Positions 1 to 64,000 of a stretch of DNA of 64,000 nt are shown in pieces. Made by a program: the position numbers and the translations under genes. Numbering within the stretch: position 1 is the first letter of the stretch; the number at the start of each line of letters is the position of its first letter. The notes below the pieces were generated by a model. The model made no database searches. It was not told where the DNA came from and saw nothing but the letters and a program-made list of their open reading frames with translations. This stretch comes from an uncultured Planctomycetales bacterium (lineage in GTDB: Bacteria > Omnitrophota > Gorgyraeia > Zapsychrales > JANLHA01): contig CAZQQI010000004.1 of the NCBI GenBank assembly GCA_964595465.1, forward strand, positions 30,195-94,194, given 5' to 3'.

Positions 1-1
1 G

Positions 2-3000
2 ATACTCGGTGCTGTGAGTGCGTTTATACTGAGTCTGATCGGATTCAGCATAGCCATTCGTGCGCCGAATACCTCTATTAAACCGACAATCAAACAAAAT
101 GTGAAGAACCCGGTTCGACGTGTTCTTGGTGAATCCAAGCGTGCGTTTGACCGGGTTTCTTCATTATTCAGCAAAGGAGGAGCAAAATGGTACTTATCAA
201 CACGCACAGAGAATTGGAATTCAAGTACTTCCTGGAAATTCCTCAAAGCCGCTGCACGTTCTGTTCAGGCCGGGATGAAGAAGGGCGCACACGTCTTTAC
301 CTCATCTTCCGTGATCAGGAACGGGTCTATCAGCGCAACGGGATCAAAGGAACCTGGGACGAGATCGCCAGCAGCGCGGAACGCCGGCAGATCCACTCCG
401 TCTACAGCCAAGCGCTCAGCAGTAACCGCGTCCCGCACTTCAAGAGTAACCGGTTCCATTCGATTCTTAATTAGTGCGGCGGTTATTCTCGGCACAGCAG
501 AAACGGCCCAGGCCGCTTCGACCGAAAGCATTGTTTCTGCTGTGCCGGCCTGGATCCTGCCGGCGCTGGGATTCAGTATGATCGTGATGATCAGTGCTGT
601 TTTGATAGGGAAATTGATCAAGACAGCTAAAGAGCACGAAGCACAGCAGAATTATGAAGAAATCACCTCTGATGATCTGATCGAAGAGTGGACAGAACTT
701 GATATTCTTTCAGCGCGGGAATCAGCAGCTCGTGGGTTGGAGGTGGTTGGATTAGGCGCGGCAGCAGAATTGGTCCGCCGGGGTGAAGTGGATGCTGATT
801 ATAACGCTCAGCGCTACGACGCGTATGTCGGCCGGTTAATCGCACAAGCTATGTTTCATGACGAGCATGTACAGGAATGGATGACCGGCAAAAATATTTT
901 AATTAAGTTGACTGGCCGGACACGTTACCGTTTCTACAGCCGGGCGGTGAGAGGCGCGTTTGCTGAACCGGATGATGCCAAGAAAGAATATGGCGAAGAC
1001 CTGAGCGAGATAAAATTAACCGAACGCAGCATTAAAGAAGATATTAGAGAAGCCGCCCGGAAAGCATGGGCGCAGATAACTGGAGAAGGTGCAGGAGGTG
1101 TCGAGCGGTTAACCATACTTAAAGAAAACGCCGCTCAGCGCAGAAAAACTGAAAATATTGCAAAAGGTTTACGCAAACTGAGCAAAGCCGCCGTTTATAT
1201 CATTTTGGCATTGATCGGGCTGGCAGTATTTAACGCGATGACTGCACCGGCTATGGCACAGACAATCTCCGCCGATACGCAGGAAGCATCGCTCAATACG
1301 TCATCAATCTCCAGCGGACAAGCAGCCTCATCCTGGCTGCAACCTGAAAAGCTGCGCCTGCCGTCCAGTGATGATGTCCTGGTCGGACTGAATGTCCGCG
1401 ATTCAGGCTGGGATGATATGCGCATTATGATGGCGCAGGAAAAATCAGGTGAAATTTATGGCGCCCTTAAAAAGTCTGGCCGGCTGCAATTATGGCACGA
1501 GGCCCTGGTGAACCGCCAGGCCGCGTCTTCCGGGGAGGTCGTGATCGGGGTCACCGGACATATTATCGCTCAGGATCCGGTCATTGACGGTCAGCATGTG
1601 GCATTGGGTCAGAAGATCGAGATCGCTAAGGGCATATACGCGCGCGTGTATGCGCCGCAGATGTTCCTGGCCTATGAAAATGAAGAGGATGCGATCGTGG
1701 CGGTTACGGCCGGCGGACGTCATTTCGTGATCCCGGCTGACCTGAGACAAGAGATCGTGGCGAAGCGTTCCGGCAGTGAGACTGATTGGGTTGCCATTCC
1801 ACAGCGGGATGATAAGACCAAACGCGTGATTATCAGAGAGCGTACCATCAGAGAATTGAACGGGCGTCTGCCTAAGCATCGCATTAATGGGCACGACGGT
1901 CTGCGCGGCGGAGCCGTCATGGTCTTGAGCGCCCGGGCCCAACGCCAGGACCGGTTTGCCTTTAATAAACTCTCCGGCCAGCTTCTGCGTGAAGCCGCTA
2001 AGGAGATCGGTACCGGGTATTATGATACCCAACTGCTGAATATGTACCGCACACTCACTTATATGTTCGAACGTGAAGCCGGCTTGACCGAATCTCTGGC
2101 CTACCGTTACTTCGAAGAAGGTGAAGTGATCGGGGCCAGTTATGTTGGAAACGTCGATCGTTTCAAGGCTGACATTCCGTATGACAAGGTCTACAGCCCG
2201 TATTCCGGCCAGGTCACGAAGGTGGAGCGCACAGGGTTCGGTATTCGTATCGAGATCGAGGGGGCGCCCAAGGTAATTACTGGATTAGAGGCGACGATCA
2301 TTAGAGAAGGCGAGATCGTCAAAGCTGGTGAACTGATCGGTCTGGATCGCGACAAAGCGCCGGCAGAGGAACGCTTGGTAAGTATTAAAGAACAGATTGA
2401 AGAAACGCAGGATGAGGCGGCGAAAGTAAATAAGGCCATTGAGCGTGCCGAACGGGATAGAGAGCAGAAGGAAAAGATACTGAAGAGCCTTGAAGATCGT
2501 GAAAAGGCCGGTGAGAGCGCCGTGGCCCAGGCCCGCCGTGAACAGGCGGCACAGATGTCCGGTTGGAGTATCGCGGGCATTAATATTGACCAGTATCAGG
2601 CTGACCCGAAAGTTGTGGCGGAACATCTTAAGATGCTGATTAACGGCACGGTCAGCCCGTATCAGGTGGAAACGGGATTGAAGCTGACCCTGGGTATTTC
2701 CACCAATGGCAATCTGCCGCTGGGCAATATCCCGGGCATGAGCTTTGGCATGAACGGGTTCGGAACCAACATCAGCGGTGCCGGCGCGACGCAGGGCCCG
2801 GCTGATACGCTCAATCTGATGTTCGGTGATGCGCTTTACGAAGGCGGCAATGCTATGGCCGGCAAGGCGCTGGCATGGCTGTATGCCATGAAGTACGCGA
2901 CACAGATCTGGAATTCGATCGCCACTGAGATCCACCATGGTGATGAGCAGCGGGGCATGATCATTATGCCGCATACCAATGAAATGCTGATGCTGCTTCC

Positions 3001-6000
3001 GCTGGATTATACCGAACATCTGGTGGTTCAGCGCGACCTGCAGAAGAAAGACGGTAAGTATGTCTTTACCGAAAAGGATAAAGAATATATCACCCTGAAG
3101 TCGAACTGGACCCGTATTATCGAAGATGTCCTGAGCACTTTGTCACTCAGTCCGCCGGAGAAGACCCTGCTGGAAGAATATATGACCAATCATCCGATCT
3201 ATGTACCGGGCGACCGTGAACGCCTTTTCTGGCTGGAAGGAGTCAATCAGCCGGTTGATTCGGATTATCAATATATCTCAATGCGGGGTATGAGTAAGCA
3301 TCAAATGCGCGAACGTCTGGCCCGGATGCGTAAGGCCCGGAATAATCTACAGACCCGCATCGATGATGCGGCTTTACGTGAAAGTTATCGAAATTTTTAT
3401 AAATCCGCGATCCCGTATCTTGAAAAAATGCTGGCCCAGGCCTCTGCGGACGGATATAAACCGCAGGAATTTTTGCACGGTTACCGTTATAACAAACGGA
3501 CCGGGCAGCTGGAAGAGCGCATGCGGATCCGTATGTTCATTGAAGATGAGAACGGCAAGCCGGTTATTCAGCAGTGGTTGTCTAATGATGATGAGGGTGC
3601 AGCCTACCGTATGCAGCCCGGCACAGCCTTCTTTATTCCGTCTATCGCGCGCGTGACACATAATCTGCCGGAAGTCCAGGCTGGATTGTATGGCAAGGGC
3701 ATGAGTTATGACCCGGCAAAAGGAATTTTCAGCCGTTATGACAATCCTTACAACAATGTCTTTCCGGCCACCCGTCCGGTTTTGAAATTGATGAGCAGCG
3801 GGACCACCTTTGATCTGTTTTCTTCTCTGGCCCAGGCGCGGGCCCTGCCGCAGGCCGTGGGTAAGAATCTTGACGGGTCTTATGCTGAATCTCTATTTAT
3901 CCCGGGTATGGATCTGATCATTGTTTCTTACTGGTTTAATAATGAGATCGTTCCGGAAGGCTCGCAGAATGCCGGTATCAGACCGGCACAGGTTACTGGA
4001 CATTTGATCCCGTTCAAGTTGGCGCAGGGCGGCGGTCAGGGTCAGCCGCGGATTTATGATCAGGCGCCGACATTAGCTTTTACCAGCCGTCTTTCGCAGC
4101 GGGATTGGAGCGTTATCCGCTATCCGGTTGATAAGGATGGCAACCGTATCCCGGTCATGATCCGCACGGTGGATCCGCGCACGGGTGCGGTTTATAAACG
4201 TCCTCTGCCGGAAGGCGTGAAGGTGGTTAAGCGCGCCGGCGACCGCCTGGGTAAAGACCAGTTCGCCTTCTGGGTGGAGCGTCCGCAGAGTATTCCGCGC
4301 GAGATGCATCTGGTGGGTGATGAGGTTCGGTTTATTTCTTCACCGCAGGAATCCGCGATGTATGGAGAGCTGGCGCCGGCACGCACAAAAGAAGACGAAC
4401 GCCGTGTTGTGAAGCTTACCTGGAAGCTTGATGAGAAAATGATCTGGGAGAACATCCTGCATGACAGCGGTGATGACCAACTTAAGCACACTCGCCTGCT
4501 GATCGGCGAAGGGCGCGCGATCGGTTTGGCGGTCCTCGGTGCTAATGCCGAGCCGTTGGATGATAACGAGAGCTACACAGCCGCTGTGAAGCCGGACGGC
4601 ACCATTGTCCGCTATGATGATGCTAACGATCAGCCTGTGACACAGAAGATCGTAATCCCGGTCCTGGAGAAGGCCGATGTGAACGCGCTGGTCACCTTCC
4701 TGCGTAAATATCAGTATCAGCGTATGGATCTGAACACTGTCCGCCGCATGCTGACGGATAAAGATTTTCCGGCTGAATGGAAAGGTGTCTTCCAGATATT
4801 TTCCAATGATGCCCAGAAAGCACTGGATAAGGTTCAAGCAACACAGGCGGCTTTTGAAGCGCAGGTACGCATCAAAGACCGCATTATGCAGATGATCAAA
4901 TCGTCTTATGCCGAAGAAGGCGATCTTATGCGTCAGCGCGCGCAGGCGGTTTTCGGTATCTTTAAAGACATGACCGAGATCGAGGTGGAGATGGTTTCCG
5001 GTATGTTGATGATGAAATACCTCAAGGAGATCGCGATCGAGAATAATATGAGCCTTGATCAGCTGATCGAACAGCTTGAGGAGCGCGGCGACCTGCGAGA
5101 TCAGATCATGAAGCTTCTGCATGACCGGTTTACGCCGACGCATCTTTTCGGGCGCGGGGCCGCGCAGGACAACCAGAGCAAGCTTCGTCAGACAGAAGAA
5201 GGCATTCAGCACTTCCGCAACTTTACTCCGAAGACCAGTACCGCATTCAGCGCATACGAGCTCGGCGGAACGACTGTTGCCGGAAGAACAGTGACTTTTG
5301 ATGAGGCCATCGCGTGGAATAAAGGGCAGATCAACACCTTTAAAGAAGACTATAAAACGGATCTGATAAATTTGATGAACAGTGATGATGCAGATGACAA
5401 CCTGCTGCGTTCACAGGAAGAATTAGCAGAATCTCATGACTGGCTGACCACAGAAAGCATCCAAATGCGTCAAGCCATGTCTGACATCGCCCATCAGCAG
5501 AATATTTACGGAGGCTATGTCAAGGCCGCTGATTTTATCGGACAGTGGTATGACAATGCGGCCTATTGGCAGGGCGCTTATGATATCAGTGATTTTCATG
5601 TCCGTCAGGAACAGTGGACCTGGAAGAATGGCGAGCTCATTAAACATCGTCCCTGGTATCATGAACATCAATTAGAAGATATTGACCGCTGGATCGCTGG
5701 ATATAAGCGCAACATTTCTCTCCTGCAGATCGCCGATACAACACGGGTCGAGAGTTTTGAAGGGCTCTGGATCCGTCCGATCCAGAGCAAGACCGTTTAT
5801 ACGGTAAGTGACGCGCAGAAAGAGGCGGACCGCTTGCGCGAGGAAGTTCGCTCCCTGCCGTTTGCATTTAAGGATATACAGAATATCACGGATGAAGCCC
5901 GCGCGGTCTATCAGAAATATACTGATCAGGTTCTGCCGCTGCAGAAGGCCTACGCGGATCTGCTGGCGAAAGACGCGGCCGCGGACGCGTTATTCCAGGG

Positions 6001-9000
6001 CAACAATCCGAATAAAGAGACAGTGGAAGACATCCGCGCGCGTAAGTTGAAACTCTTCCAGGCAGAAAAGGCTTGGCGTGAGGCGCGTCAGACTGTTCTG
6101 GCAGAGCTGGATCAGGTTGGGCAGGGTTATTATCTGGATGAACGCACACGCCGCATTCTGGACTTTGAGCGTGAATTGGCGCTGACTGCTGCCAAAAATT
6201 TCTTTGACCGCCGCGGTCTTGGCGCTAACCCGCACGGTGCTATGTTAGAGAACATGAAGAAGTTCGCCAGTTATAACTGGCCGCTGCGTGACATTGCTAA
6301 TCGCATTTCTGATCTGCGCCGGGCGTCCGACAATGCTGAGAAAGATATTGCGCGTGCGCATCAGGCAGTTGTTCACGCTCAGCAGCAGTTCGATGATTTG
6401 GTGACTAATTTTGGCCGTTCATTCATCGACCATTTGGACGAGCATTACGAAGGCGTGGTCCTCTCCCAGAAAGACCGTAATTATATTGCTTATCAGCTGG
6501 CCCGGATGCAGCGCGGACCTCCGCGGATCAAATATATGAATGGTCAATTGTACTTAGACGGCCGTCGTGTTGACGCGGCCGGCACGATCAGTCAGGGTCG
6601 ATTTACCGAGATCTCTTCTTCTGATTTTCGCAACGGCGAGATGTCCGCGCATATGACCGCCTGGATGGATCCGGAACACGGCCGCAATGTCTATATTATG
6701 AATGCTCAGCCGAATGCCGAGGGCATGGGCGGACATCAGCTGATGCTGCTTGAGGTTAATCTGACGCCGGAAGAAGCCAGGAATTTTACACATCATTTCG
6801 CGATCGGAGGCGGGCAGTGGTCCCGCACCGAACAGCAGGGTGCGTTTGACGAAGAGGGCGAGACCGTGACTGAACGGTACGCCTTGATCCTGGATACATT
6901 AGCGTGGCGCAATGATAAATTTTCTTTGAATGTGGTCGGGTTCGGTAAGATCTCAGCATCAAAGAACGGTACACATGTCGGTGGTCTTCAGGGTACGCTA
7001 GAATACAAGATCAACGAAAAGGCGCGTTTGATCGTGGAAGGCGGATTCGCGGCATCTAGCCGAAAAGAGACCTATAGTGTTTTCGATCCTGCCACACAGG
7101 CCTATAAGCCGTGGACCCTGCGCGGGAGCGATAACTATAATTATCAGAAGATCACACTGGATCATGTCCTGACCGAAAAAGGCGGTCTGCGCGGTCAGAT
7201 CTCGCTCATGCGTGTGCAGGAAGGCAGCTTTGCCCGTAAGATCAAGGGAAACACCAGTATCTTCCCGTCTATGGGGCTTACCTATAGTCCGAAAGACGCA
7301 GCCAAGCGTCAGGCCGAGGCTAAGTTGGCTGAGCTTAAAGAAGACGGTGTGACCGATCCGTTTGAATTGCAGGCAGCGTATCAGAAGACCTATAATGAGA
7401 CCCTGGCGCAGTTTAAACTCCCGGTTGAGGTCGCTTTTGAACAGGCCCTTGGGTTCAACATGACTAACATTGAGGCGCGTTACAAGAATGTCTGGATGCG
7501 GGCGCGTCACCTGGACGGCACCTGGACTTATGGCGCGGGCGCGCGGATCATCGACCGTGAGCAGGTCAAGATGGATGTCAGTGTGTCGGTTGACGCTCTC
7601 GGCACACCTGTGGTGAATCTGGCGACATCCGCCCAGCCTTTTGACGGTGTCGAATTCAGCGCTTCGTTGGGCAATAAAGATCCGCTGGTCAGCGCCACGA
7701 TCGATATCTTTAAACTGGCTAAAGTATTGGCAGTGAATGAAGAGACCGAAGCGGCTGCGGCCGTGACCCTGAGAGATCTCTCCCGGACTCAGATCATGGT
7801 GGGTCTGGATCTGGCCGGTGTGGTCGATGCTGACGCGCGACAGATCGTCAATATTATTATGCAGATCCGCAGCGACAAAGACTTCATGAAGACCAATCCG
7901 GGTTTTGATCAGATCCTGGCCCATGAGAAATTCAAATCTCATCAAGACCTGAAGAACATCCTAGATAAACGCATGGTTGTCAGCAAGCTTGCTTGGACTA
8001 AGACCGTTACGGAAGAATTCGTTGCTTATGAAAAAGCGGATATTGATCCTTTCCTGGCCCTGGCCCTTGCACCTCAGCCGTTCGATCAGCCCAAGCCGTA
8101 TGATGTCAATGTTTACCTGAATGAGAACTTGTGGCAGACCAGATATGCTGTTCTTGAGACGGACGCCGGGGATCTCAATACGAGCGTTGTCGGGCTCAGG
8201 AAGCGCATCGCTCATGAATTAAAGATCGCGAACAATAAAGATTATTTCGGCTATGCCCGCTTGCTCGGCCGCTTGAGCCAGGGGCTGACGATGGAAGAAT
8301 ACAGCGTGGCTGTGACGGTCGAGAAGGCGTATGAAGAATACAACGAGAACGGCATGATCCGGTTCGCTCCGGGCAGCGGGTATTACTTCCGTATGCCGTA
8401 CCGTGGTGAGATTATCGAGATCCCGATGGGTGACGGGAAAGGCCTGGTCATCGTTCCTGAGTTAGCTGAAAAATATAATCTGCGTGAAGAATTGCGTAGC
8501 CCGTATCCGATCCCGGTCGAAGCGAAGCTGAATATGCTTAGATTGATCGAACAGGCTTACGAGGGGGATGGGTACTATGTGGTGCCGGGCGAAGGGCTTT
8601 ATCAGATTACCGACAATCAGCTTGATCTGCACCCGGATGCCACAGACATTCCGGCTGAGGCGATCATCGTCCGCAGTGAACAGGGCATTGCAGCAACGGC
8701 AAACCATTTTGCTCTGATCGTACCCAACAGCCAGGGAGAATGGGTCAAGATTTTTGCAACGGAGGCCGAGATGGTCAACTTGCTGAATGACAGGACCTAT
8801 GGATTAGATTATTACCTGTTGACAGAAAAGGACCAAGACGGTGAACCTATTCGCATGCTGGCTGTCCCGGCTGAGGAAGGCATGTCCGGTGCCAAAGAAA
8901 CCATTGACGGCCGCTGGGTGATCGGTGTCGGATATATGAACAGAGAATTGAACGACCGCCTGGATAGCGAGACTGAAGAATTCAACGCCGGGACACTGGA

Positions 9001-12000
9001 GAAGGATGGCGAACCGGTGGTCATGCGCCTGAACCGTCCGAATGTCACGGCAGACACCTTAGCAACATCGCTGACCCGTGAAGAAGCCGAGCAAATGATT
9101 ATAGATAACATGGCGACTGAAGAGTCAGAGCTGAACGCGCCGCACTTTGTCCTGCGTCATCTGAAGGACAACCTTATGGATGCCTTCCCTTATTATCAGG
9201 ATATCGATGGTGACCAGGAATATGATCCGCAAACCGATGCATTCAGCAAGGGTGACCCGCGTTTCTATGAATCCCAGCCGAATGAATCTTCGCGCGGTGA
9301 CCAGTGGCAGCCGCTGAAGACCTTCGGTATCTATGATCCGCAGACCGATACATTTTACACCTTTGATTTTGCCGGCGAAGACGGGCGTATCGGATACGCT
9401 GCGATGTCTGATATCTTAGCGCCGTATTCGTCTGTTGTCGTGAATGAAGCCGGTCAATCCGTTTATAAAACCACGGAAGGGCTGGACGCGCTTATAAGCG
9501 AAAACATCCTGAGATGGGCTAAAGAGACAGAGGGCGGGCGCACGCGTTATATCTTAGAAAGCCCCTATTCACCGGTTGGGTTATCGCGTGACTTGCGCGA
9601 TCAGTTCGAAAACATTCTTGAGCAGGGTCATTGGCTGGTCCTTAAAGAAGACACCGTTATTCCGTCCAGCGTGGATCCGCAGAAATTGATTGCGGTGACC
9701 TCTAGATTCGAAGCGCTGCTGGAAGGTTCCCTTGAGGATAAAATTGAAATCGTCCGAATGGATGCGGACGGATATGTGACAGCCCATGTCTACCTTGATT
9801 ACAATCCTCAGAAATCACGGATCGGAGTTGTCGATAGCGCCGTTGAGCGTATCTACAACTTGGCGGATTATATCGAATCCCCGGCCGATGTGCAACCTGT
9901 CGCTGATGCGACGACGTTGGATGAGCTGACCTATAGCGACATGAGCGATGTTCCGGAATTGACCCTTCAGCGTTTCCACAAGATTATGGATGCTGTACAG
10001 CGGTTGGGTGAGGATCTGAAATACGTTAAGATCCGTGATCTGGATGTGACGCGCTATTTTGATGGACCGTATTATACGATTGAAGTCTTTGAAGAAGGCG
10101 CCAGCGATCCGATCGTCAGTATTCGCCCGCTGCAGGAAGAGATCGTTTGGTTTGACGCCGAGGGGAACGAACGCTACACCACTGATCTGTACGGCGAAGA
10201 GGGCGTCCGGGTCAAAATTGGGGATCGCTTCGAAGAGAATGTCACCGGCGTCTTCGAATTTCATGAAGACGAAGACACCGGGTTATACGTTAGTTTGCGT
10301 GAGACAGAAGAAAATCCATCGTACACGACCATGAAACGTACCCATACTAATGGTGCCATACAGCGAGAAGAGGTTGCCACTGTAAAGAGAAATGACGTGA
10401 TCAATATCCTCAACACCGGTCAATCGTTACAGAACATCGCTGAGGGAGCGGACTTCACCTATGCCGATGATTATGTTTACGACAATGAGCATAAATTGGC
10501 CGAACGCCGTATTGGCGTTCATGATCAACACGCATGGACCATCTATCCGCAGGTTCAGGATGGGCCGGTTGAAGGTATTACGGAAAAACTGCTGGCCTTA
10601 AGCGATGTCGGTCAGAGCTGGGGTCAATTTAATATTACTTCTGATATGGAATGGGAGATCGCCAAAACCGTACGGGTTTTCGGCAACAATTACAAAGTTG
10701 AGACCTATGACTACCGTATTCCTAATGATCCTTTAGAGCGAATCTTTTTAACGATTAGGATGGAGAATGGTCAGCTGATCGAAATGATTGCCGGATTGGC
10801 ATTTGATCAGCGTACCGGGGATCAGATCCGTTCATCTGTCCTGGAGATGAACTACGACGAAAAAGCCCAATTTGATTATCTTGAAGAAGATGAACGGGAG
10901 CAGTTGGATATTATTGACAACGCTGGACAGCTGTTTGATGCAGAAAAGATCGAGACCCTTATGGGCGCGATGGCCAGACGGTTCCCGGAAGCCGTCAAGA
11001 TTGATCGTGCAGGACGCCTGACCCGGTTCTTTGATATTATCGGGCAGGAAGATGAGATCCTGCCGGAAGACTATCCGCAGATCTTCTGGGGATTCATGCG
11101 CCGCATGGGAATTACCCCGGACACAGAATTTACGGTCTTGCGTGAGCGGGCCCGCCTCTGGACCGGTGATGGATATTCTGATCAGTATTTCGCCCGGCCG
11201 AAATTGCATTACCTGATCCCCAATGACAGCCGCGGGCGGGATGCTGTGGTGGTCTATCCCAACGGCGATATGACCCTGAACTTGTGGTGGCTGGAGGGTG
11301 AAGAAAATGTCCATGTTATAAACGGCGGTCCGCGTTATTACGATATGCCGACCGGGGTTCTTCCGGGTATGATCACGATCGATGCAGACAATGAGCTGAA
11401 GCAGGTCGGCATATACCGTGCTCCGGCTCAGGGTGAAGCTGAATTCGATATTACCTTATATGAGCGCGAGAATGGCCGTCCGCTGGAAGGCGCTGACCCG
11501 ATTGTGGATGTCCATGCTGGCGGCGGACAGATGTTCCAGACAGCGTTTTATAATGAAGACGGCTCCAAGGATGTGTTCATCGGTCATGAATATGAGATTA
11601 TGGACGCGGAATTCAAACGCAGCGCCATCTATACGGCCGGTGGTCAGCTTCTGGCTGAGAAGTATTCCCATGTCACGGTTCAGATCGTCAAAGAGCTGTT
11701 GGGTGTTGGAACCAATGGGGAAGAAACGATTGTCTTTGATCCGCGCCAACCATACCGCTATCCGATCCAGGCTTACATGAGGAATGCCGAAGGAGAGAAT
11801 CTTGCGGACGGCACCATCGTTAAGACCTTTGTTCACCAGGACAGCATGATGGATTTTAGCGCTGATCCTATAAAAGCCGATGTGGGTGCTCAGAAGAGTG
11901 AATTTGTGGTTTATGAATCTGAGGGCGTGGCGCCGCAAACAATCAATGCTCAAAAGTATACCTATATTGATGACGAGCTTCAGGAAAAGACCCGCTGGCA

Positions 12001-57000: not shown

Positions 57001-60000
57001 TGACGCCCAGGGACGTGTGACGTTCACCCTGTTTTATGAGCGCAAGCCGGTCCTGCGCATTGAATGTCTCGGAGCGGATCAGTATCGGTTTTATCAGATT
57101 ATATGGAAGAAGGTCGCCGTTCAAGACGGGCCGCCAGCAGTTCATCCGGTTTTAACCCCGATGGCACCGGGAGATCTTGACAAGAATCTCCGTCAGGCCC
57201 TGCATACCCTAGAGAGCATCGAGAAAGATTATTCCCATTTGATTTATCATGAGGCGGCTTTGAGACAGGCCCGGTTCCTTCTTTCAGGGAAAAGGACTGT
57301 TCCGTATGAGCGGGAGATGGCGTTGTCTTTGATCCGCGGGGTGTATTTCGGACCGCAGTCGAAGCAGAATAAAGACGGACGGAGCCGTCCCGGGAAATAC
57401 GGGCTGGCGCTTAAAACAGCGGAAGTTAGCCGTGGGCGGCGGGGAGGCTTGATCCGTCTACCCAAGATCAGCCTGGAGACGGCCTTGTCCGCGCTTGATG
57501 CCGGCGATGCCCGCACAGCACGGGAGATGCTTGCCAGTGCGCAGGAATGGATCAACGGGCGTCTGAATGTCCTCGAGCGGCAGGACCGGGGGGTTCAGAG
57601 GCGCCGGGATTATTTTTACCTATTATTCCGCGATCATATGGTTCGCCAAGCCATGCAGTCACTAGAAACCGTTCTCCGATCCGCTCCAGAGAATGATATA
57701 GAAATTCAAAAAGTACGTCTCCAGCTTGATGGTCTTATAGAACAGCATTTCAAATCCATTGCCGCAGAACAATATTATAAAAATGTTCATACCTGGTTGA
57801 GCGCTATACGTGGACTTTTGCGCACTGTTGAACGTTTGCGGTCAGCGCCTTCTGTGGAGTTTCGCACGCAGCGTATCGCCATGCAAATGCGCGGGATTAA
57901 AGAGTATATGCGCAAAATTTGGAGCGGCTTGAGTCAGGTTCGGGATAAGCGGCGAAAGAGCGGTGTCGGGAGAGGTCGGGGACAGGGCAGTAATCGCGGC
58001 AGGGATCGTAGAGGATCCGCGAGCAGTGCTGTTGTGTTTATGATGGCAGGAGCGACGGGCTTGATTATCGGCATCATGACGTCGAGTCTTTTTATCTGGT
58101 CAGGCGGAATAGTATTGTTAGGGGCGGCTGTTTATGGTTGGCGGAACGGGAAGCTGCTGTTCGTGAAGCGGCTGCGTTCTTTGGTTGTTCCGCTTGCAGG
58201 CCTCCTGCTGGTTAGCTGTTTTGTGATACTTCCGGCTGGGTGCAGAGAAAAACCCGCAGGTCAGAGTCAGGCGGAGAAGCGGCTGGTCCAGCAGCGCGCG
58301 CGAGAACGATCCAGGATTGAAGATATTGCAAGAAGAATGAACAATACAGATCCGGCCATCCGCAAGCAAGCGATGAAGGATCTTGCCGCAGTGAACTATG
58401 TTCATGACGAAGCAGTTTCCCTGCTTCTCAAGGGTCTGCATGATCCCGCGCGTGATGTACGCATGGCGGCTGTGGACAGCCTGGCAGCGCTGGGAGCAGC
58501 TGCCAGGGACGCTGTACCGGAAATGAACAAGAAGCTGTTATCGACGGATAATCAGCAGATGCAGCAGGTGCTGATCAATGCTGTTGTACGCATTGAAGGC
58601 GATGCCACGGGGTTGATCAAAAGACTAGCAGATGTTCTCCGCGGGAAGGATGCGGCAATGCGTGGTCATGCTTTTAATGTCTTGGAAAAAATTTCAGGAC
58701 ATAACGTACAGAAACAGACTGTGCTGGTTCCGCTTTTGAGAAACGATGATGCGCAGCTTCGTAAAGAAGCAGCCAAGATGCTGACCAGAACAGGATGGAT
58801 ACCGCCCAATCAGCAGGCCAGGGTCGTTTGGCTGGTCGCTCAGGAGAAAAATCAGATATTTATTCAAGAAGGGGAGAGCTCCGTACCGGCCTTGATCGCG
58901 TTGATGAATGATGACGCAGAGCATGTTCGCGACGCTGTTGCAGCTGCTCTTGCTGAAATCGGGCGTCCGGCATTTTCAGCGTTAGTCCAGGATAAGACTG
59001 ATCGTGCAGATCGTGTCCGGACATTGATGGCGCGTCAGACTGACGATCAATCGCTGTTATTGGACATGATTACGCATGAGCGGGGAATTGAGCGGGGCAA
59101 TGTCCAGCTGGCAGCAATTCAGCGTTTGGGTGAGATCGGAGATATTCATGCCGTGCCGATATTGAGAACATGCGCTAAAAACGATATCGATTATTCTGAT
59201 GATGAGAATCAGGCCGCGCGGAAGGCTCTGCAACAGATCAAACAGCGTGTCGGTCCTGCAGAGTGGTCCAGGACGGTTTCCTCGCCTATTAATTGGTCAA
59301 AATGGTGGTCTGCCGGCATGGCAGTCTTATTCACCGGAATTGTTCTATATGTTGCGGCGTTATTCCTGAGCATTATATCGAATAAGGTCATCGTTCCTGT
59401 TTGTAGCCGTCTGGCCCGCCAGGGCGACAACAATGGCAATGCCTCGGATCCAAAGCCGTCTTTGCCTGTTCTGGAGTCTTACCGCTATTTCAAACGGTCT
59501 GAAGCAAGACGAAGGCCGCCCGCCTTTCATGGCAAATTGAGAGAAATTTTAGGCGTTACGTTAATGGCTATCTTGATTGGAGTTTTTCTGAGCACAGCAT
59601 TGCGTAACCATAAGGTAATTTTAACTCTTGAAGGGTATTTCGCACTCATATTTTTTGTCGGCTTGATCCCGATAGCGATCTTTTGGTTAATGCGGATTTT
59701 AGCGACCGGTATTCCGCAGCACCTGGTTTGGACCGCGTTCTTTCCTCTCAGATATATTTTGATGATGCTTGAATACACCGGAATGAACACCGACCGCCCC
59801 CAGCAGTATTATCTCTTGCGCCGCATAAAACAGAGATTAGCATCCGGGTCCTATAAAGAGGCCGATGAGATTGTACAGAACACAGACATTAAACTCGATT
59901 GGAAGAGCAGACTTGATCTTGCTGAGATGTGGGGGGAGCGAGCAGGAATTACTCTCGATGCAGCGGAGGCATCTTATGTTAATTTTAGCCAAAGTGATGT

Positions 60001-63000
60001 GCCGGTCAGCGTACAGGAAAAAGTTGTCATAATGTGGAAAATGATCATTGAAGAAGCCCCTGTATTTGCGGCAGTATATTTTGCCGGTACCGGTTTAGTC
60101 AAAGCAAACCTATGGCAAGAGGTTGCCAGGATATGGGAGATCATCGCAGAAAAAGAACCCGCTGCTGCGGCAGAGTATTTTGCCCGTTCCGGGCTGACCG
60201 TCGAGAACGCCGGTGAAGACGTGGTTGCCATTTGGGAAATGATCGCGCGAAAGGCGCCGCAGACAGCGGCAGAGTATTTTGCCCATTCCGGGTTGACCTT
60301 AGAGAATGCTGGTGAAGACGTGGTTGCCATTTGGGAAATGATCGCGCGAAAGGGGCCGCAGGCAGCGGCAGAGCATTTTGCCCGTTCCGGGTTGACCTTA
60401 GAGAATGCTGGTGAAGACGTGGTTGCCATTTGGGAAATGATCGCGCGAAAGGCGCCGCGGGCAGCGGCAGAGTATTTTGCCCGTTCCGGGCTGACCTTCG
60501 AGAACGCCGGTAAAGACGTGGTTGCTATTTGGGAAATGATCGCGCGAAAGGATCCACTTTTAGCGGCGAAATATTTTTTCAATTCAGGATTGACGTTTGA
60601 AGATGCTCCGCATGCTGCCAATGAAGTTTGGGGGTCCATTACTCAGAACGAAAATCGCATAGTATCTAAGCCGTTTTTACGCGTATGCGAAGAGGAATAT
60701 ATTAACGGTGTAGATGCAGGGTTTGAATCCCTGAATGTCTCCGGCCTGGCGCTGGGAAGCCAGGCGTATGTAAAAGCCTTGCTGCTGGAAGAGATCGCAT
60801 ATACGGGTGAAATCAGGAAATCTTTTTCAGAGAATTTAACACAAAAAATTATTCCGGCGTTGAGAGTCTTGGAATCTTTAAGTTCGGAGTATCCCACTTT
60901 GGGGATGGAAGCCAAGCATCATAGCGATGATGAGCAGAACCAGCATATTTTCTCCCTGCAGGTTTCTATGGGGAACTATTTGAGTCAAGTAAAAACCGAA
61001 CACGAAATGGGCCTTTCATACCTGGAAAGTAACGGTTATGGAGAAATACGGGTTTTGCCGACCGTTTATCCGATTTTTATTCTTTTGGTGGAAAAAATAC
61101 GGCGGCTGGGGATCGTCGGGACCATGCTGTACTCAAGTGTGATATCCGGAGATCACTTACAGGAAGCCGGCCTGCTTTTGACGGCATTGTTTTATGCGAA
61201 TTATTCCGCGGCACCGATCAATCCGGATGGAACAAGCGATTGGATGTTTCCCGGAATCGGTGGCCGTTTTATCGGGGCAACGGTCGACCCCTGGACGGGA
61301 GAATTGGGAGATTATGATCGTTCTACAATAGGACGGTTTACGACTCAGACCAATTTTTTCCACGGTCTGATCGAGATTCCCAACCTCGAGGGCGGGGTGC
61401 GTCCCTATTTTGCTGATGATCTAGAGCGGACCTTTCTGCTGGCCTCAGCGGCTCAGGCCTATCTGCGAGGCCGAGATTTTGATGAGCGGCTTAAGCAGGT
61501 CTATCAGGAGTTCCGTCAAGAGGTCGCGAAGTTTATGATAGACCGGCTTGATTTTACGGCAGAGGAGTTCAGAAAATTATTTCCTGAACGCCATGGCGGC
61601 CATGAATATACGAAAGATGAGGATGGCCTTATACAAGTGTTGAGGCATATGGAGAAATATTTCCGCGCTGTTGTGTCTGATGACGATGAGCAAAGGCAGC
61701 AGAAGATTTTATGTCATAGGGCTTTTGGAGAGATCATTGAGCGGCACCGCAAAAAGATTAAGACAATTATGTTTCCTGGTGCGGCAGGAGATTTTCTGAC
61801 AGCGGGGATGAAAGAGGATTGGCAGGAAATTGAGCAGATCGTGATCCAGGGCATATTCTCGAATGATCCGCAAGATCGTTTTCTGTGTCAACGAGCAGCT
61901 GATTTTTATGGCAGCAACAGTTTGGTAAGAAAAGTACTCGAAAACGATAAACGGGGAACCAGTTCGAAGACACATCATAGCGCTGATTCCAAAGAAGAGC
62001 CTGCCGATCATACTTCAGACGCTCCCGGCGGAAAGCCGCGTTCTGAACAGGGTTTTATTCGAACCTCGTTGCTGGGCATTATGTTTCTTCCTTTGGCTGT
62101 GACCTTCTCTGCTGCTTATGGTGCCGCGGTGGAGAATACGATATGGCTACTGTATGTGTTTTTTGCCGGGATCCTGGTCTATGCCGTCTGGGCCGGTGGA
62201 ATAAAAAACGGTATTCATGCATTCAGTAAAAAAATGCTACAGAAGACACGCCGGTTTTTGAATCTCAATGAACATCAAGATCCAGGCCAGCACAACACAG
62301 CAAATGGATCCGTTGATGATGTGGTGTTGCAGCCCTATCATCAGGCTATGCGTGATGTTGATGAGCGTTTACGCAAGGAAATTACCTTGACTCGGGATGA
62401 TCGCAACTGGTTATGGGCCAAGAGACGGCTATTGATACAAAATTATGATGATATCCACGCAATGGCCGTACAGCATGTTATGACAGCCGAAGGCGTCGAC
62501 ATGAACCTGGCCCGGATTGAACAGGACATCCCGGCGGAAGCTGAAAAGATATCCCGTGAAGGACCAAACTGTATTACCCGTGAGTTTGTCCGCCGTGGCT
62601 GGAAGGTTATTGCTGATGATCTCGTGCGTCAGGCTGTTGAAGATCCTGCGGGGATTCTCTATGATGATCGCTTTGCTGATCCGTTCTTCCGCGTTATGCC
62701 GATTCTGTACAGGATCGGGCCGGACATGGCGAGAACCATTTTTGTTAAAAGGGTGGGCGCTCGACTGTACCACGTTGTCAGCGCTCCGGGAGATGGAGCA
62801 GAGCTCCGTCTCATAGATCTGTATGGCCAGGAGGATGCCTGGGTCGGATCGGACAAGCATCCAGATAAATCGCGTCATATATTTTTTCATCCGGAAGAAA
62901 ACGTTTTCCAGTATTTCCTATCTACAGCCCTAAAGGTTATTAGACGCTCATTTTATTTTGTTAAGCGTGGGCTGGTTCACTATATCGTTCTAGCGGTGCT

Positions 63001-64000: not shown

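Follow-up and report, generated by a model that had tools for sequence, protein, structure and literature searches.

A predicted FKS/GT48-type glucan-synthase module inside a giant open reading frame, most likely from Candidatus Omnitrophota

The stretch of 64,000 nucleotides analysed here (the window) contains a reading frame that is never closed, which raises the question of whether this frame is the interior of one real gene and, if so, what kind of protein such a gene would encode. On rescanning, + strand frame 2 (nt 2-64000) contained no TAA, TAG or TGA in 21,333 codons, as the earlier note had stated. At a stop probability of ~5.1% per codon, calculated from base frequencies (T.2435, A.259, G.278), ~1,100 stops were predicted in this frame, and the probability of finding none is ~10^-489. 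Because all three stop codons are absent, the ORF is valid under any stop-reassigning genetic code. Codon-position GC followed the order GC1 (0.51-0.61) > GC3 (0.45-0.60) > GC2 (0.34-0.45) in 21 of the 22 three-kb bins, the exception being the bin that starts at nt 6002, where GC3 (0.602) was marginally above GC1 (0.595); this near-uniform pattern indicates that frame 2 is protein-like throughout. Between the members of each of three internal paralog pairs, dN/dS was 0.28, 0.33 and 0.18, indicating purifying selection in frame 2. Neither the start nor the stop of the gene lies inside the window, so the gene does exceed 64 kb, as had been proposed, and 21,333 codons is a lower bound on its length.

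The other five frames had been described as stop-dense with only short ORFs. Their stop counts (1,552, 1,021, 480, 933 and 1,075) bear out the first half of this description; the second half fails, since the longest ORF off frame 2 is antisense and runs for 1,443 nt from stop to stop. From ATG to stop it occupies nt 33014-34303 of the - strand (429 aa), and it looks like a shadow ORF. No Pfam match was obtained for any of the four antisense ORFs scanned (429, 315, 290 and 265 aa), and the Rfam and tRNA scans were empty. The features located along frame 2 are collected in Table 1.

Table 1. Features of the reading frame, in order of position in the window
Feature	Nucleotides	Amino acids	Strand	Basis
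Single stop-free reading frame, interior of a larger gene	2-64000		+	Stop scan, codon-position GC, dN/dS
638-nt identical direct repeat, copy 1, start of module A	545-1182	about 182-394	+	
LytM/M23-like or lipoyl-type 'barrel-sandwich' element, module A	2183-2344	728-781	+	
Beta-rich conserved domain, N-terminal part of the ~2,200-aa 'FKS supermodule'	10109-12031	~3370-4010	+	
N-terminal TM bundle of FKS-like synthase, ~8 helices (predicted)	13100-14011	4367-4670	+	Helix scan, AF2 model
GT48 (FKS1/callose-synthase type) glycosyltransferase domain (predicted)	14177-15871	4726-5290	+	PF02364, FKS1 alignment
C-terminal TM region of FKS-like synthase (predicted)	15878-16804	5293-5601	+	FKS1 residues 1375-1438 collinear; model
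Weak DUF218-like element	18134-18547	6045-6182	+	E 2.6e-4, below Pfam cutoff
638-nt exact repeat, copy 2, start of module B	19643-20280		+	
Equivalent M23-like element, module B	21236-21424		+	
Second TM-soluble-TM module (~9 TM, 553-aa soluble domain, ~7 TM)	31640-35425	10547-11808	+	Helix layout
TM+TPR unit, first copy (single TM)	39278-40423	13093-13474	+	Paralog search, Pfam
Enzyme-I-like PEP-utilising module	41060-42787	13687-14262	+	PF00391, PF02896, TIGR01417
TM+TPR unit, second copy	42878-44047	14293-14682	+	35% identity to first
TPR array	47093-47791	~15698-15930	+	Pfam
HExxH element (H17298-E-F-F-H17302)	51503-52150		+	Conservation
GH130-like domain with internal insertion	52481-53602	17494-17867	+	PF04041
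HEAT repeat array	58334-59176	~19445-19725	+	HEAT_2, E 3e-20
Tandem array, 99-nt (33-aa) unit, ~4-5 copies, 80-93% identity, in-frame	60121-60607		+	

An assembly artefact, in which a chimeric join or a wrong path through a repeat made or lengthened the ORF, has to be weighed against this evidence. The perfect 638-nt repeat, whose copies lie 19,098 nt (6,366 codons) apart in the same frame, might confuse a short-read assembler and could be the sole point of assembly ambiguity in the window; the fall of GC3 from 0.60 to 0.45 along the window might likewise reflect a join. However, both copies are in frame with all four distinct flanks, and alternative paths through the repeat would only add or remove whole 6,366-codon units. 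Random joins would have to keep the frame open over 64 kb at the probability given above, and errors break ORFs rather than create them. In addition, the same type of ORF stays open over all of the DNA available in 36 independent species assemblies, among them a complete 3.36 Mb chromosome (L002), and homology with relatives is collinear over 2,200 aa. We consider an artefact very improbable, and the reading of frame 2 as the interior of one gene is followed below.

The repeat copies belong to two paralogous modules: module A (aa 177-830, nt 530-2491), which holds two of the three leading TM helices, and module B (aa 6543-7193, nt 19628-21580). The identity of the 638 nt in otherwise diverging paralogs may reflect a recent exchange between them, as a conversion tract; the scan of metagenomes with the duplicated module returned no relatives. 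Both modules carry a LytM/M23-like element, with Peptidase_M23 E values of 0.0036 and 0.23 in the A and B copies. An active peptidase was rejected for these elements, given that the HxxxD and HxH zinc ligands are absent, and they are probably non-catalytic.

The earlier note had described large soluble domains alternating with polytopic TM clusters, and a Kyte-Doolittle scan and the AF2 model presented below agree with this layout. The scan, which is crude, found ~63 helices in ~26 clusters, with soluble stretches of 120-3,600 aa between them and ~5.6% of residues in TM helices; such a count is too coarse for helix parity between domains to serve as a guide to topology, and a parity argument was therefore given up. 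Internal repetition is confined to three paralog pairs and the 99-nt tandem array, whose 33-aa unit is helical-repeat-like; the protein is thus mostly non-repetitive, which upholds the view that it is unlike classic giant adhesins. Giant adhesin-like proteins consist of tandem repeats (fibronectin- and haemagglutinin-like), and RTX/Bap adhesins of Ig, cadherin or VCBS repeat types, whereas the window has hardly any repeats and abounds in enzymes and TM helices; the giant adhesin-like protein of Chlorobium chlorochromatii and the RTX/Bap proteins share only their size class with it. The Pfam scans of the window also found no NRPS/PKS domains (condensation, adenylation, KS, AT or carrier), and with almost no repeats and no such families an adhesin or NRPS/PKS identity was ruled out. 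Helical repeats of the scaffold type are present as TPR and HEAT arrays, with more TPR/Arm repeats at aa ~16848-16950. The second TM-soluble-TM module resembles the FKS module described below in its layout; it was rejected as a second GT48, having no similarity to that module by blastp/phmmer or hhalign. For about 76% of the protein, the loci and proteins that were fetched contained no homolog, most of it also lacking a Pfam match, and an NCBIfam search of aa 1-9900 gave no match. Because of this, any reading of the protein as a 'carbohydrate factory' rests on a minority of its sequence.

Within that minority, aa 4340-5600 is, as judged from sequence and model together, a complete FKS/GT48-type processive glucan-synthase module. 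PF02364 scored 173.8 bits (cutoff 37.2), yeast FKS1 aligned with an E of 6e-33, and a profile comparison with FKS1 residues 747-1316 reached an E of 2e-50. The FKS1 residues E851, K1082, N1085, D1102/N1104 and E1221/D1222, whose catalytic or UDP-Glc roles have been described (PMC12715860), are all kept, with E4832, K5087, N5090, D5107-M-N5109 (DAN motif) and E5202-D5203 (ED motif) present in the window; the window module differs from eukaryotic GT48 in having Phe (F4830) for Y849 and DMN for DAN. The predicted C-terminal TM region contains the family-invariant Y-x-x-T-G-R motif (Y2011, T2014, G2015 and R2016 of the alignment), which Fks1 and the callose synthases (CAZy GT48) share, and the N-terminal TM bundle shows a weak collinear match to the TM5-6 region of FKS1. 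In the AF2 model of the synthase (pLDDT 79, pTM 0.82), helical bundles flank the GT domain on both sides, which places it between two TM bundles as in Fks1/Fks2, with a predicted channel. Fks1/Fks2 structures took the first 13 places among the PDB matches of the model, with E values as low as 3e-25 over 1,146-1,377 aligned columns, and BcsA, CesA, and hyaluronan and chitin synthases came next, although the global TM-score against Fks1/2 was only 0.35-0.48.

In its predicted layout the module shares with Fks1/Fks2 and the plant callose synthases the succession of a TM bundle, a cytoplasmic GT-A domain and a second TM bundle; its identity to Fks1/Fks2 is ~17% over the structural alignment and ~30% in the GT domain. 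It differs from the eukaryotic enzymes in its surroundings as well: it sits inside a protein of >21 kaa, a Rho1 partner is not expected in bacteria, and it is preceded by a conserved ~950-aa region whose beta-rich domain is missing from eukaryotic GT48. The supermodule profile had no significant FKS1 match before residue ~747, FKS1 residues 557-720 giving only a non-significant collinear stretch, so that no counterpart of the N-terminal accessory (AC) domain was found by this profile; the conserved domain upstream of the synthase has a beta-rich fold, unlike the AC domain, with one TM helix behind it at aa 4014. Together, these parts form an FKS supermodule (aa ~3370-5600) common to other Omnitrophota giant ORFs. 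Downstream of it, aa 6012-6300 recurs behind GT48 in two other giant ORFs (L020 and L035); the DUF218-like identity of the element within this region is a weak hint, and a PDB profile search gave no support for it.

An exhaustive protein search retrieved 869 relatives of the GT48 module, and the named top matches were proteins of Omnitrophota MAGs, for the most part 'partial' ORFs that take up the whole of their contigs. The module was found in 48 species loci, including 30 labelled Omnitrophota, 10 from MAGs labelled 'Planctomycetales/-ia' and 3 from Endomicrobiia/Elusimicrobiota. At 36 of these 48 loci the available DNA ends, on both sides, before the ORF does, and 11 stay open for at least 20 kb. 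Relatives are collinear with the window over the supermodule, where the best identity is 66% (L001), and carry the other window modules in different order. They also contain starch-synthase/GT1/GT2, RHS and HEAT domains and, in one relative, Peptidase_C39; these are families reported for Omnitrophota giants, which supports the lineage and kind of the present protein. The link to Omnitrophota made in the earlier note is therefore strengthened, the nearest homologs of the supermodule being in Omnitrophota MAGs, and a member of Candidatus Omnitrophota is the most likely source of the window, on the basis of the homology of one supermodule at up to 66% identity. This evidence is indirect, as the window contains no phylogenetic marker gene.

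The distribution of relatives also bears on the possibility that the window is eukaryotic, as an intronless gene or a contaminant. Elsewhere, GT48 is characteristic of fungi, plants and oomycetes, and HEAT, Arm and TPR repeats are typical of eukaryotes. However, the nearest GT48 relatives, at 42-66% identity, are all in bacterial MAGs, whereas plant and oomycete callose synthases reach ~33% and rank below ~80; in a rough NJ tree, the eukaryote-like GT48 sequences group tightly together, separate from a bacterial cluster of greater diversity to which the window belongs. Since a module of the PTS Enzyme I type is also bacterial, a eukaryotic source is scarcely credible.

That module, bracketed by the diverged TM+TPR pair, follows the order of an N-terminal helical part, a mobile His domain and a PEP-binding barrel. 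PF00391 scored 31.6 bits against 23.1 and PF02896 48.7 bits against 22.8, and TIGR01417 covered model positions 18-548 of 565 at 77.3 bits, against an equivalog cutoff of 341.7. The equivalent of the catalytic His189, H13867, lies in GTATAHAAILAR, the mobile His domain reading GTATAH13867AAILAR, and the equivalents of E. coli EI R296, E431, N454/D455 and the catalytic C502 are conserved in the alignment, the R332/D335 region being unaligned. In its domain order and its His189, R296, E431, D455 and C502 equivalents, the module is like PTS Enzyme I; it differs in a ~100-aa unaligned insertion and in its fusion between two TM+TPR units, and the window shows neither an HPr nor an EII partner. We thus read it from its sequence as EI-like and not as a bona fide PtsI. 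The GH130-like domain matched PF04041 at 57.8 bits (cutoff 26), the PDB entry 9fj8 with an E of 5e-9 and NF052550 with an E of 1e-17, the last below the equivalog cutoff, and it is nearest to beta-1,2-mannobiose/oligomannan phosphorylases. Both the EI-like and the GH130-like domains score far below the NCBIfam equivalog cutoffs, so that any substrate proposed for them would be putative.

Upstream of the GH130-like domain lies the HExxH element, the only occurrence of this motif in all 21,333 aa. It is common to five other GT48-bearing giant ORFs, and its two His, its Glu and a second Glu eight residues downstream are invariant in six of six sequences. The best PDB match, MJ1213 (4qhj), which we take to be the peptidase 'selecase', was marginal (E 0.037 over 42 residues) and aligned on the HExxH helix. 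We consider this element a candidate minimal zinc metallopeptidase, of the gluzincin type.

A conserved putative peptidase inside the ORF would suit a polyprotein or fused operon, in which separate proteins arise by proteolysis or internal starts and the giant chain is a precursor. Cleavage by C39/S8 peptidase domains has been proposed for giant proteins (West-Roberts et al. 2023, 10.1101/2023.11.21.568195), one relative carries Peptidase_C39 as noted above, and in four relatives (L004, L012, L013 and L037) a frameshift or single in-frame stops divide the same module order among neighbouring ORFs of one strand, so that the modules can evidently work uncoupled. These breaks may, however, be MAG errors, the frameshift in L004 adjoining A-runs within a conserved motif, and cleavage is only putative, given how marginally the HExxH element matches a known peptidase family. 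Nor do signals for separate expression stand out in the part scanned (nt 1-40000), where promoter- and terminator-like motifs are about as frequent as chance predicts: nt 1-20000 gave 21 against 20.8 and 20 against 18.6 expected by chance, and terminator-like sites were mildly enriched in nt 20001-40000 (29 against 17.7+-4.2 expected), in T-rich TM-coding DNA. Published proteomics of a 39,678-aa protein, the type 'Archaeovorin' of Velamenicoccus archaeovorus (10.1101/2023.11.21.568195), is not decisive on this point. We regard a polyprotein as possible though not the likelier course; it would be partly compatible with the multi-enzyme membrane protein favoured below.

A different function, a weapon for predation or attachment that binds and digests the wall of a prey or host cell instead of building a polysaccharide of its own, has been hypothesized in the literature for Omnitrophota giants. 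The GH130, TPR/HEAT, LytM-like and HExxH elements could act on foreign envelopes, and one GT48-bearing giant ORF comes from a MAG that carries the label Methanosarcinales (L033), perhaps a wrongly binned episymbiont living on an archaeal host. On the other hand, the catalytic domains with the strongest support have a biosynthetic or cytoplasmic character (UDP-Glc synthase, PEP-dependent EI and phosphorylase), the M23-like element is without zinc ligands, and neither a lytic transglycosylase nor a dockerin, lectin or adhesin repeat turned up in the Pfam scans of the window. A predatory role is accordingly unlikely.

Proteins of this general kind have been described before. Full-length Omnitrophota giants all have numerous TM regions, TM-rich giants reach 85,804 aa, and the 'Archaeovorins' carry HEAT, TPR, GT, GH and PEP/pyruvate kinase-type domains (West-Roberts et al. 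2023, 10.1101/2023.11.21.568195). A larger survey lists 3,650 proteins of at least 10 kaa and 348 of at least 30 kaa, with a maximum of 147,155 aa and 147 TM helices, and 94% of long proteins being membrane-targeted (Nielsen & Lui 2026, 10.64898/2026.06.07.730766). Hence the suggestion in the earlier note that giant genes occur in a few lineages only, as a mark of rarity, could not be sustained: the architecture has already been described, in these two preprints, as typical of Omnitrophota giants. Like the Archaeovorins, the window combines a giant ORF and many TM helices with HEAT/TPR, GT/GH-type and PEP/pyruvate-kinase-type domains, its sequence is mostly unannotatable, and its closest homologs are in Omnitrophota. 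It differs from them in that no SecA_DEAD (at Pfam E<=1; a divergent copy occurs in most full-length Omnitrophota giants), C39/S8, NUDIX, methyltransferase or GT5/GT1 domain was found in the window, an absence that is not conclusive as the gene is incomplete and continues past both window ends. Other marks of these giants, namely an N-terminal signal peptide together with the C39/S8 peptidase and, close to the gene, a T2SS-like locus and pilZ genes, would fall in the N-terminus or the flanking DNA beyond the window. It differs further in its GT, an FKS-type GT48 synthase with a predicted TM channel of its own. The window also resembles the Class 1 'multi-enzyme metabolic cluster' of Nielsen & Lui in sugar metabolism, HEAT scaffolding and TM helices along the chain, and its at least 21 kaa fall within their size distribution; its ~5.6% of TM residues stands against their ~2%, figures that come from different methods and are not comparable. 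West-Roberts et al. make no mention of 'glucan synthase' or GT48, and PF02364, PF02896 and PF04041 are unlisted in the text of Nielsen & Lui. The giant ORF is thus a further example of a described class; what it adds that is both new and testable is its GT48 module.

Taken together, the window is probably an internal slice of one gene of >21,333 codons, most likely from Candidatus Omnitrophota, whose product would be a multi-enzyme protein anchored in the inner membrane, of the 'Archaeovorin' or 'multi-enzyme metabolic cluster' kind. We propose that the polypeptide would be threaded into the cytoplasmic membrane during synthesis, with the TM clusters pinning carbohydrate-handling enzymes and helical-repeat scaffolds side by side at the membrane. 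The GT48 module would polymerise UDP-glucose at the cytoplasmic face and extrude a beta-glucan through its own TM channel, as in Fks1 and cellulose synthase. The GH130 and EI-like domains might supply or recycle sugar phosphates, or regulate the process by PEP-dependent phosphorylation, and the HExxH element may cleave the chain or a substrate. The gene itself would be a mosaic, in which a conserved FKS supermodule is joined to other modules that are shuffled or lineage-specific.

The giant ORF alone matters little, as its class is catalogued in thousands; the value lies in its content. A giant protein can here be partly resolved into a coherent carbohydrate-handling set (FKS-type synthase, EI-like, GH130 and HExxH), and giant ORFs of at least 48 species use its FKS supermodule again and again as a building block, so that the supermodule could serve as a marker of giant-gene fragments in fragmented MAGs. 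The shuffled module order in relatives and the 638-nt conversion tract would illustrate how giant genes grow and change, and the synthase provides a 1,200-aa piece for expression and assay and a bacterial outgroup for GT48. Much more tentatively, and as an idea that we rate as doubtful for the present, Omnitrophota and some Elusimicrobiota may hold a deep, diverse bacterial clade of complete FKS/GT48 processive synthases, habitually inside giant ORFs. If this is true, the bacterial clade would be a candidate source or ancient sister of the eukaryotic enzyme, and the synthase would offer the first directly assayable catalytic handle on the function of a giant Omnitrophota protein. If the enzyme is active, ultra-small bacteria would build a callose- or curdlan-like beta-glucan with a supposedly eukaryote-specific machine, the target of the echinocandins.

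The earlier note had read the window, from its sequence alone, as the interior of one giant ORF, and this reading proved correct: a stop scan of all six frames detected no TAA, TAG or TGA in the 21,333 codons of + strand frame 2 (nt 2-64000), and the remaining five frames are as stop-dense as claimed, with 480 to 1,552 stops each. A random codon of this base composition has a ~5.1% chance of being a stop, which predicts ~1,100 stops over the frame; the probability of finding none is ~10^-489. With TAA, TAG and TGA all missing, no appeal to an alternative genetic code is required. Of 22 three-kb bins, 21 show the coding-type order GC1 > GC3 > GC2, and in the other one GC3 exceeds GC1 by a narrow margin. 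Differences within the three internal paralog pairs are mostly synonymous (dN/dS 0.28, 0.33 and 0.18), and the amino-acid composition of the frame-2 protein is ordinary. The longest ORF outside frame 2 is antisense (1,443 nt stop-to-stop; 429 aa from ATG to stop) and had no family match, and the tRNA and Rfam scans of the window returned no tRNA and no Rfam family. The giant ORF is confirmed as real, and the gene must be at least 21,333 codons long.

Two compositional features were also observed in the window. GC1 and GC2 remain stable along the window, whereas GC3 drifts from ~0.60 at nt 3000-9000 to ~0.45 at nt 27000-30000 and in the last kb; the drift may reflect modules that differ in age or origin within a mosaic gene. 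Matches resembling a hairpin plus T-run terminator were mildly in excess at nt 20001-40000 (29 versus 17.7+-4.2 in shuffles), with no strong terminator seen in that interval; the T-richness of TM-segment codons is the probable cause.

When the window was compared with itself, as DNA and as protein, only three paralog pairs and one tandem array emerged, so the protein is not repeat-built. The tandem array sits just downstream of the HEAT array, and its copy number could be strain-variable or mis-assembled. The only repeat long enough for assembly ambiguity is the 638-nt direct repeat, which is in frame with all four of its flanks, and alternative paths would add or remove whole in-frame units only; it therefore cannot create the ORF, although it could alter its length. 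Because its left boundary is abrupt and identity falls gradually on the right (from 92% to 76% to ~70%), the repeat has the appearance of recent gene conversion between two paralogous modules of one gene.

Features of the window and of related loci (amino-acid positions follow frame 2)
Feature	Position	Strand	Remarks
Duplicated module	aa 177-830 vs aa 6543-7193	+	Self-comparison
638-nt perfect direct repeat	nt 545-1182 and nt 19643-20280	+	Copies 19,098 nt (6,366 codons) apart, in phase
GT48 domain (Glucan_synthase, PF02364)	aa 4726-5290	+	173.8 bits vs cutoff 37.2
140-aa pair	aa 6292-6434 vs aa 11876-12019	+	Self-comparison
Diverged TM+TPR pair	aa 13093-13474 vs aa 14293-14682	+	Self-comparison
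TPR arrays	aa ~13320-13425, 14536-14623, 15698-15930	+	Pfam
Enzyme-I-like module	aa 13687-14262	+	Pfam PEP-utilizers and PEP-utilizers_C above threshold
HExxH element	aa 17168-17383 (nt 51503-52150)	+	Invariant HExxH and Glu eight residues downstream
GH130-like domain	aa 17494-17867	+	Closest to beta-1,2-mannoside phosphorylases
HEAT array	aa 19445-19725	+	Pfam
99-nt (33-aa) in-frame tandem array	nt 60121-60607	+	~4-5 copies, 80-93% identity
Frame interruptions in relatives (positions in fetched loci)	L004 7931-7998, 16259-16261; L013 6395-6397; L012 12641-12643, 16627-16629; L037 5389-5391		

By a Kyte-Doolittle scan, the candidate TM helices number ~63 and fall into ~26 clusters, with 120 to 3,600 aa of soluble sequence between clusters, which bears out the alternation of TM clusters and soluble domains described in the earlier note. 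The order and spacing of these elements are strikingly parallel in aa 1-5570 (nt 2-16711) and aa 6501-11808 (nt 19502-35425): both stretches comprise 3 TM, ~3.3-3.6 kaa soluble, 1 TM, ~0.4 kaa soluble, 8-9 TM, ~0.6 kaa soluble and 4-7 TM, with detectable homology between them limited to the first ~650 aa. The position of GT48 in the first stretch is occupied in the second by a 553-aa soluble domain of unassigned function.

The GT48 domain matched yeast FKS1 with an E value of 6e-33. The residues of FKS1 implicated in catalysis or UDP-Glc binding include Y849, E851, K1082, N1085, the DAN motif and E1221/D1222 (2025 review, PMC12715860); in our alignment E851, K1082, N1085, D1102/N1104 (DAN motif) and E1221/D1222 are all retained, and Y849, replaced by Phe, is the sole change. 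A profile of the entire conserved region matched FKS1 residues 747-1316 (E 2e-50) and extends in collinear fashion, below significance, into the flanking TM regions, where it includes an invariant YxxTGR motif. An AlphaFold2 model of aa 4390-5589, built from 36 sequences (pLDDT 79, pTM 0.82), was matched best in the PDB by Fks1/Fks2, which took the first 13 places (E down to 3e-25) in alignments of 1,146-1,377 columns that include the TM bundles, although the TM-scores were low, at 0.35-0.48; next came cellulose synthases of bacteria and plants, hyaluronan synthases and chitin synthases. Judged by its sequence and predicted fold, the GT48 module is a complete membrane-embedded processive synthase of the FKS type, and an apparently active one. 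Unlike the eukaryotic FKS enzymes, it is without their N-terminal accessory domain; the conserved region upstream (aa 3370-4330) holds a beta-rich domain, the model of which, though of reasonable quality (pLDDT 73.6), had no confident fold match.

No copy of the window turned up in the public genome or metagenome collections searched. An exhaustive HMMER search recovered 869 relatives of the GT48 module, 137 of them below E 1e-30. The best named relatives are Candidatus Omnitrophota MAG proteins, mostly annotated as 'partial' and limited in length by their contigs; a few are from Elusimicrobiota/Endomicrobiia, and plant and oomycete callose synthases appear from rank ~80 down (~33% identity). 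In a scan of one genome per species, 48 GT48 loci were found: 30 labelled Omnitrophota (including Ca. Zapsychrus exili), 10 from Planctomycetales/-ia MAGs, 3 from Endomicrobiia/Elusimicrobiota and 5 from other or unnamed sources. The match-bearing ORF is open past both ends of the fetched DNA in 36 of the 48 and over at least 20 kb in 11; these include L002, a locus on a complete Omnitrophota chromosome of 3.36 Mb, the fetched part of which equals the window in GC (0.496). Collinearity between the relatives and the window extends over aa ~3370-5600, the conserved FKS supermodule, whereas aa 2014-2574, 6012-6300, 7280-9010 and 17168-17383 are differently placed in them, indicating that the giant genes are mosaics. 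In other respects the twelve long relatives examined remain largely dark; Peptidase_C39, starch-synthase/GT1/GT2, RHS and HEAT domains occur in single members. For ~76% of the window protein, the fetched loci and proteins contain no homolog. A rough NJ tree was built from GT48 hits P0001-P0163 over 204 GT-domain columns, with labels set by proximity to a few named seeds. The sequences nearest known plant and oomycete callose synthases formed one tight cluster in it (mean distance 0.43), and those of bacterial type, the window among them, lay apart as a more diverse set (0.69); on the origin of GT48 this clustering gives no more than a lead.

In some relatives the giant frame is broken by isolated in-frame stops (TAA, TAG and TGA mixed) and reopens at the next codon, with no ATG or GTG within ~20 codons after the interruption in the four junctions checked; the frame of Ca. 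Zapsychrus exili also switches by +1 within a conserved motif, next to A-runs. These interruptions could be MAG errors, gene fission or recoding, and in view of them MDP8213471.1, a 'complete' protein of 2,761 aa, probably represents only part of a far longer frame. A 25.4 kb contig of a 'Methanosarcinales archaeon' MAG (L033, JAIWAR010000013.1, match at 10001-11215) carries a GT48-bearing ORF of at least 5,749 aa and may be a mis-binned Omnitrophota contig, which, if true, would be intriguing given that V. archaeovorus, an Omnitrophota bacterium in culture, was seen adhering to Methanosaeta, the methanogen on which it preys (West-Roberts et al. 2023 preprint, 10.1101/2023.11.21.568195).

Several other domains accompany the synthase. 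The Enzyme-I-like module aligned with positions 18-548 of the 565 in TIGR01417 at 77 bits, far under the equivalog cutoff; its phospho-histidine motif, GTATAH13867AAILAR, is conserved, as are the counterparts of R296, E431, N454/D455 and C502 in E. coli EI. The HExxH element, just upstream of the GH130 domain, contains the only HExxH motif in the 21,333 residues and is common to five other GT48-bearing giant ORFs (six including the window). Its best PDB match, marginal (E 0.037) and aligned on the HExxH helix, was MJ1213, the minimal metallopeptidase selecase; the element is a candidate minimal metallopeptidase. Weak hints were obtained of a DUF218-like element (aa 6045-6182) and, in both copies of the duplicated module, of a LytM/M23-like barrel with its zinc ligands absent.

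In the best-supported reading, we infer that the chain would be inserted co-translationally, with its TM clusters holding one enzyme or scaffold domain after another at the cytoplasmic membrane. The complete GT48 module would use UDP-sugar on the cytoplasmic side and extrude beta-glucan through its own TM bundle; the GH130 domain and the EI-like domain, with its catalytic motifs, could supply or recycle sugar phosphates or act in PEP-dependent phosphorylation; the HEAT and TPR arrays would organise partners, and the HExxH element may process the chain. A polyprotein is compatible with this evidence, and we consider it rather unlikely. The published hypothesis of predation or cell-wall degradation is a possible reading but less supported by the content of the window, in which the clearest catalytic domains have a biosynthetic or cytoplasmic character and no lytic-looking element occurs except the one whose metal ligands are lost.

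Giant genes encoding up to 85,804 aa are concentrated in Omnitrophota; all full-length giants have numerous TM regions, and the 'Archaeovorin' type is rich in HEAT, TPR, GT, GH, sugar-metabolic and 'pyruvate-diphosphate kinase' (PEP-utilising) domains (West-Roberts et al. 2023, 10.1101/2023.11.21.568195). A further survey counted 3,650 proteins of at least 10 kaa and 348 of at least 30 kaa, the largest having 147,155 aa and 147 TM helices; 94% of long proteins were membrane-targeted, and a 'multi-enzyme metabolic cluster' class was named (Nielsen & Lui 2026 preprint, 10.64898/2026.06.07.730766). The size of the window protein, its pattern of TM helices, its mix of domains and its nearest relatives all fit the Omnitrophota giants of both preprints; no SecA_DEAD or C39/S8 domain was seen within the window, which covers only part of the gene. 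Its ORF belongs to this now well-documented class of giant proteins. Neither preprint mentions GT48 or glucan synthase in its text, and none of the papers in the library searched links Omnitrophota with GT48; CAZy or other sources might already list bacterial GT48 members. The interest of the window lies in its content, namely a predicted complete FKS-type synthase module that recurs in the giant ORFs of at least 48 species.
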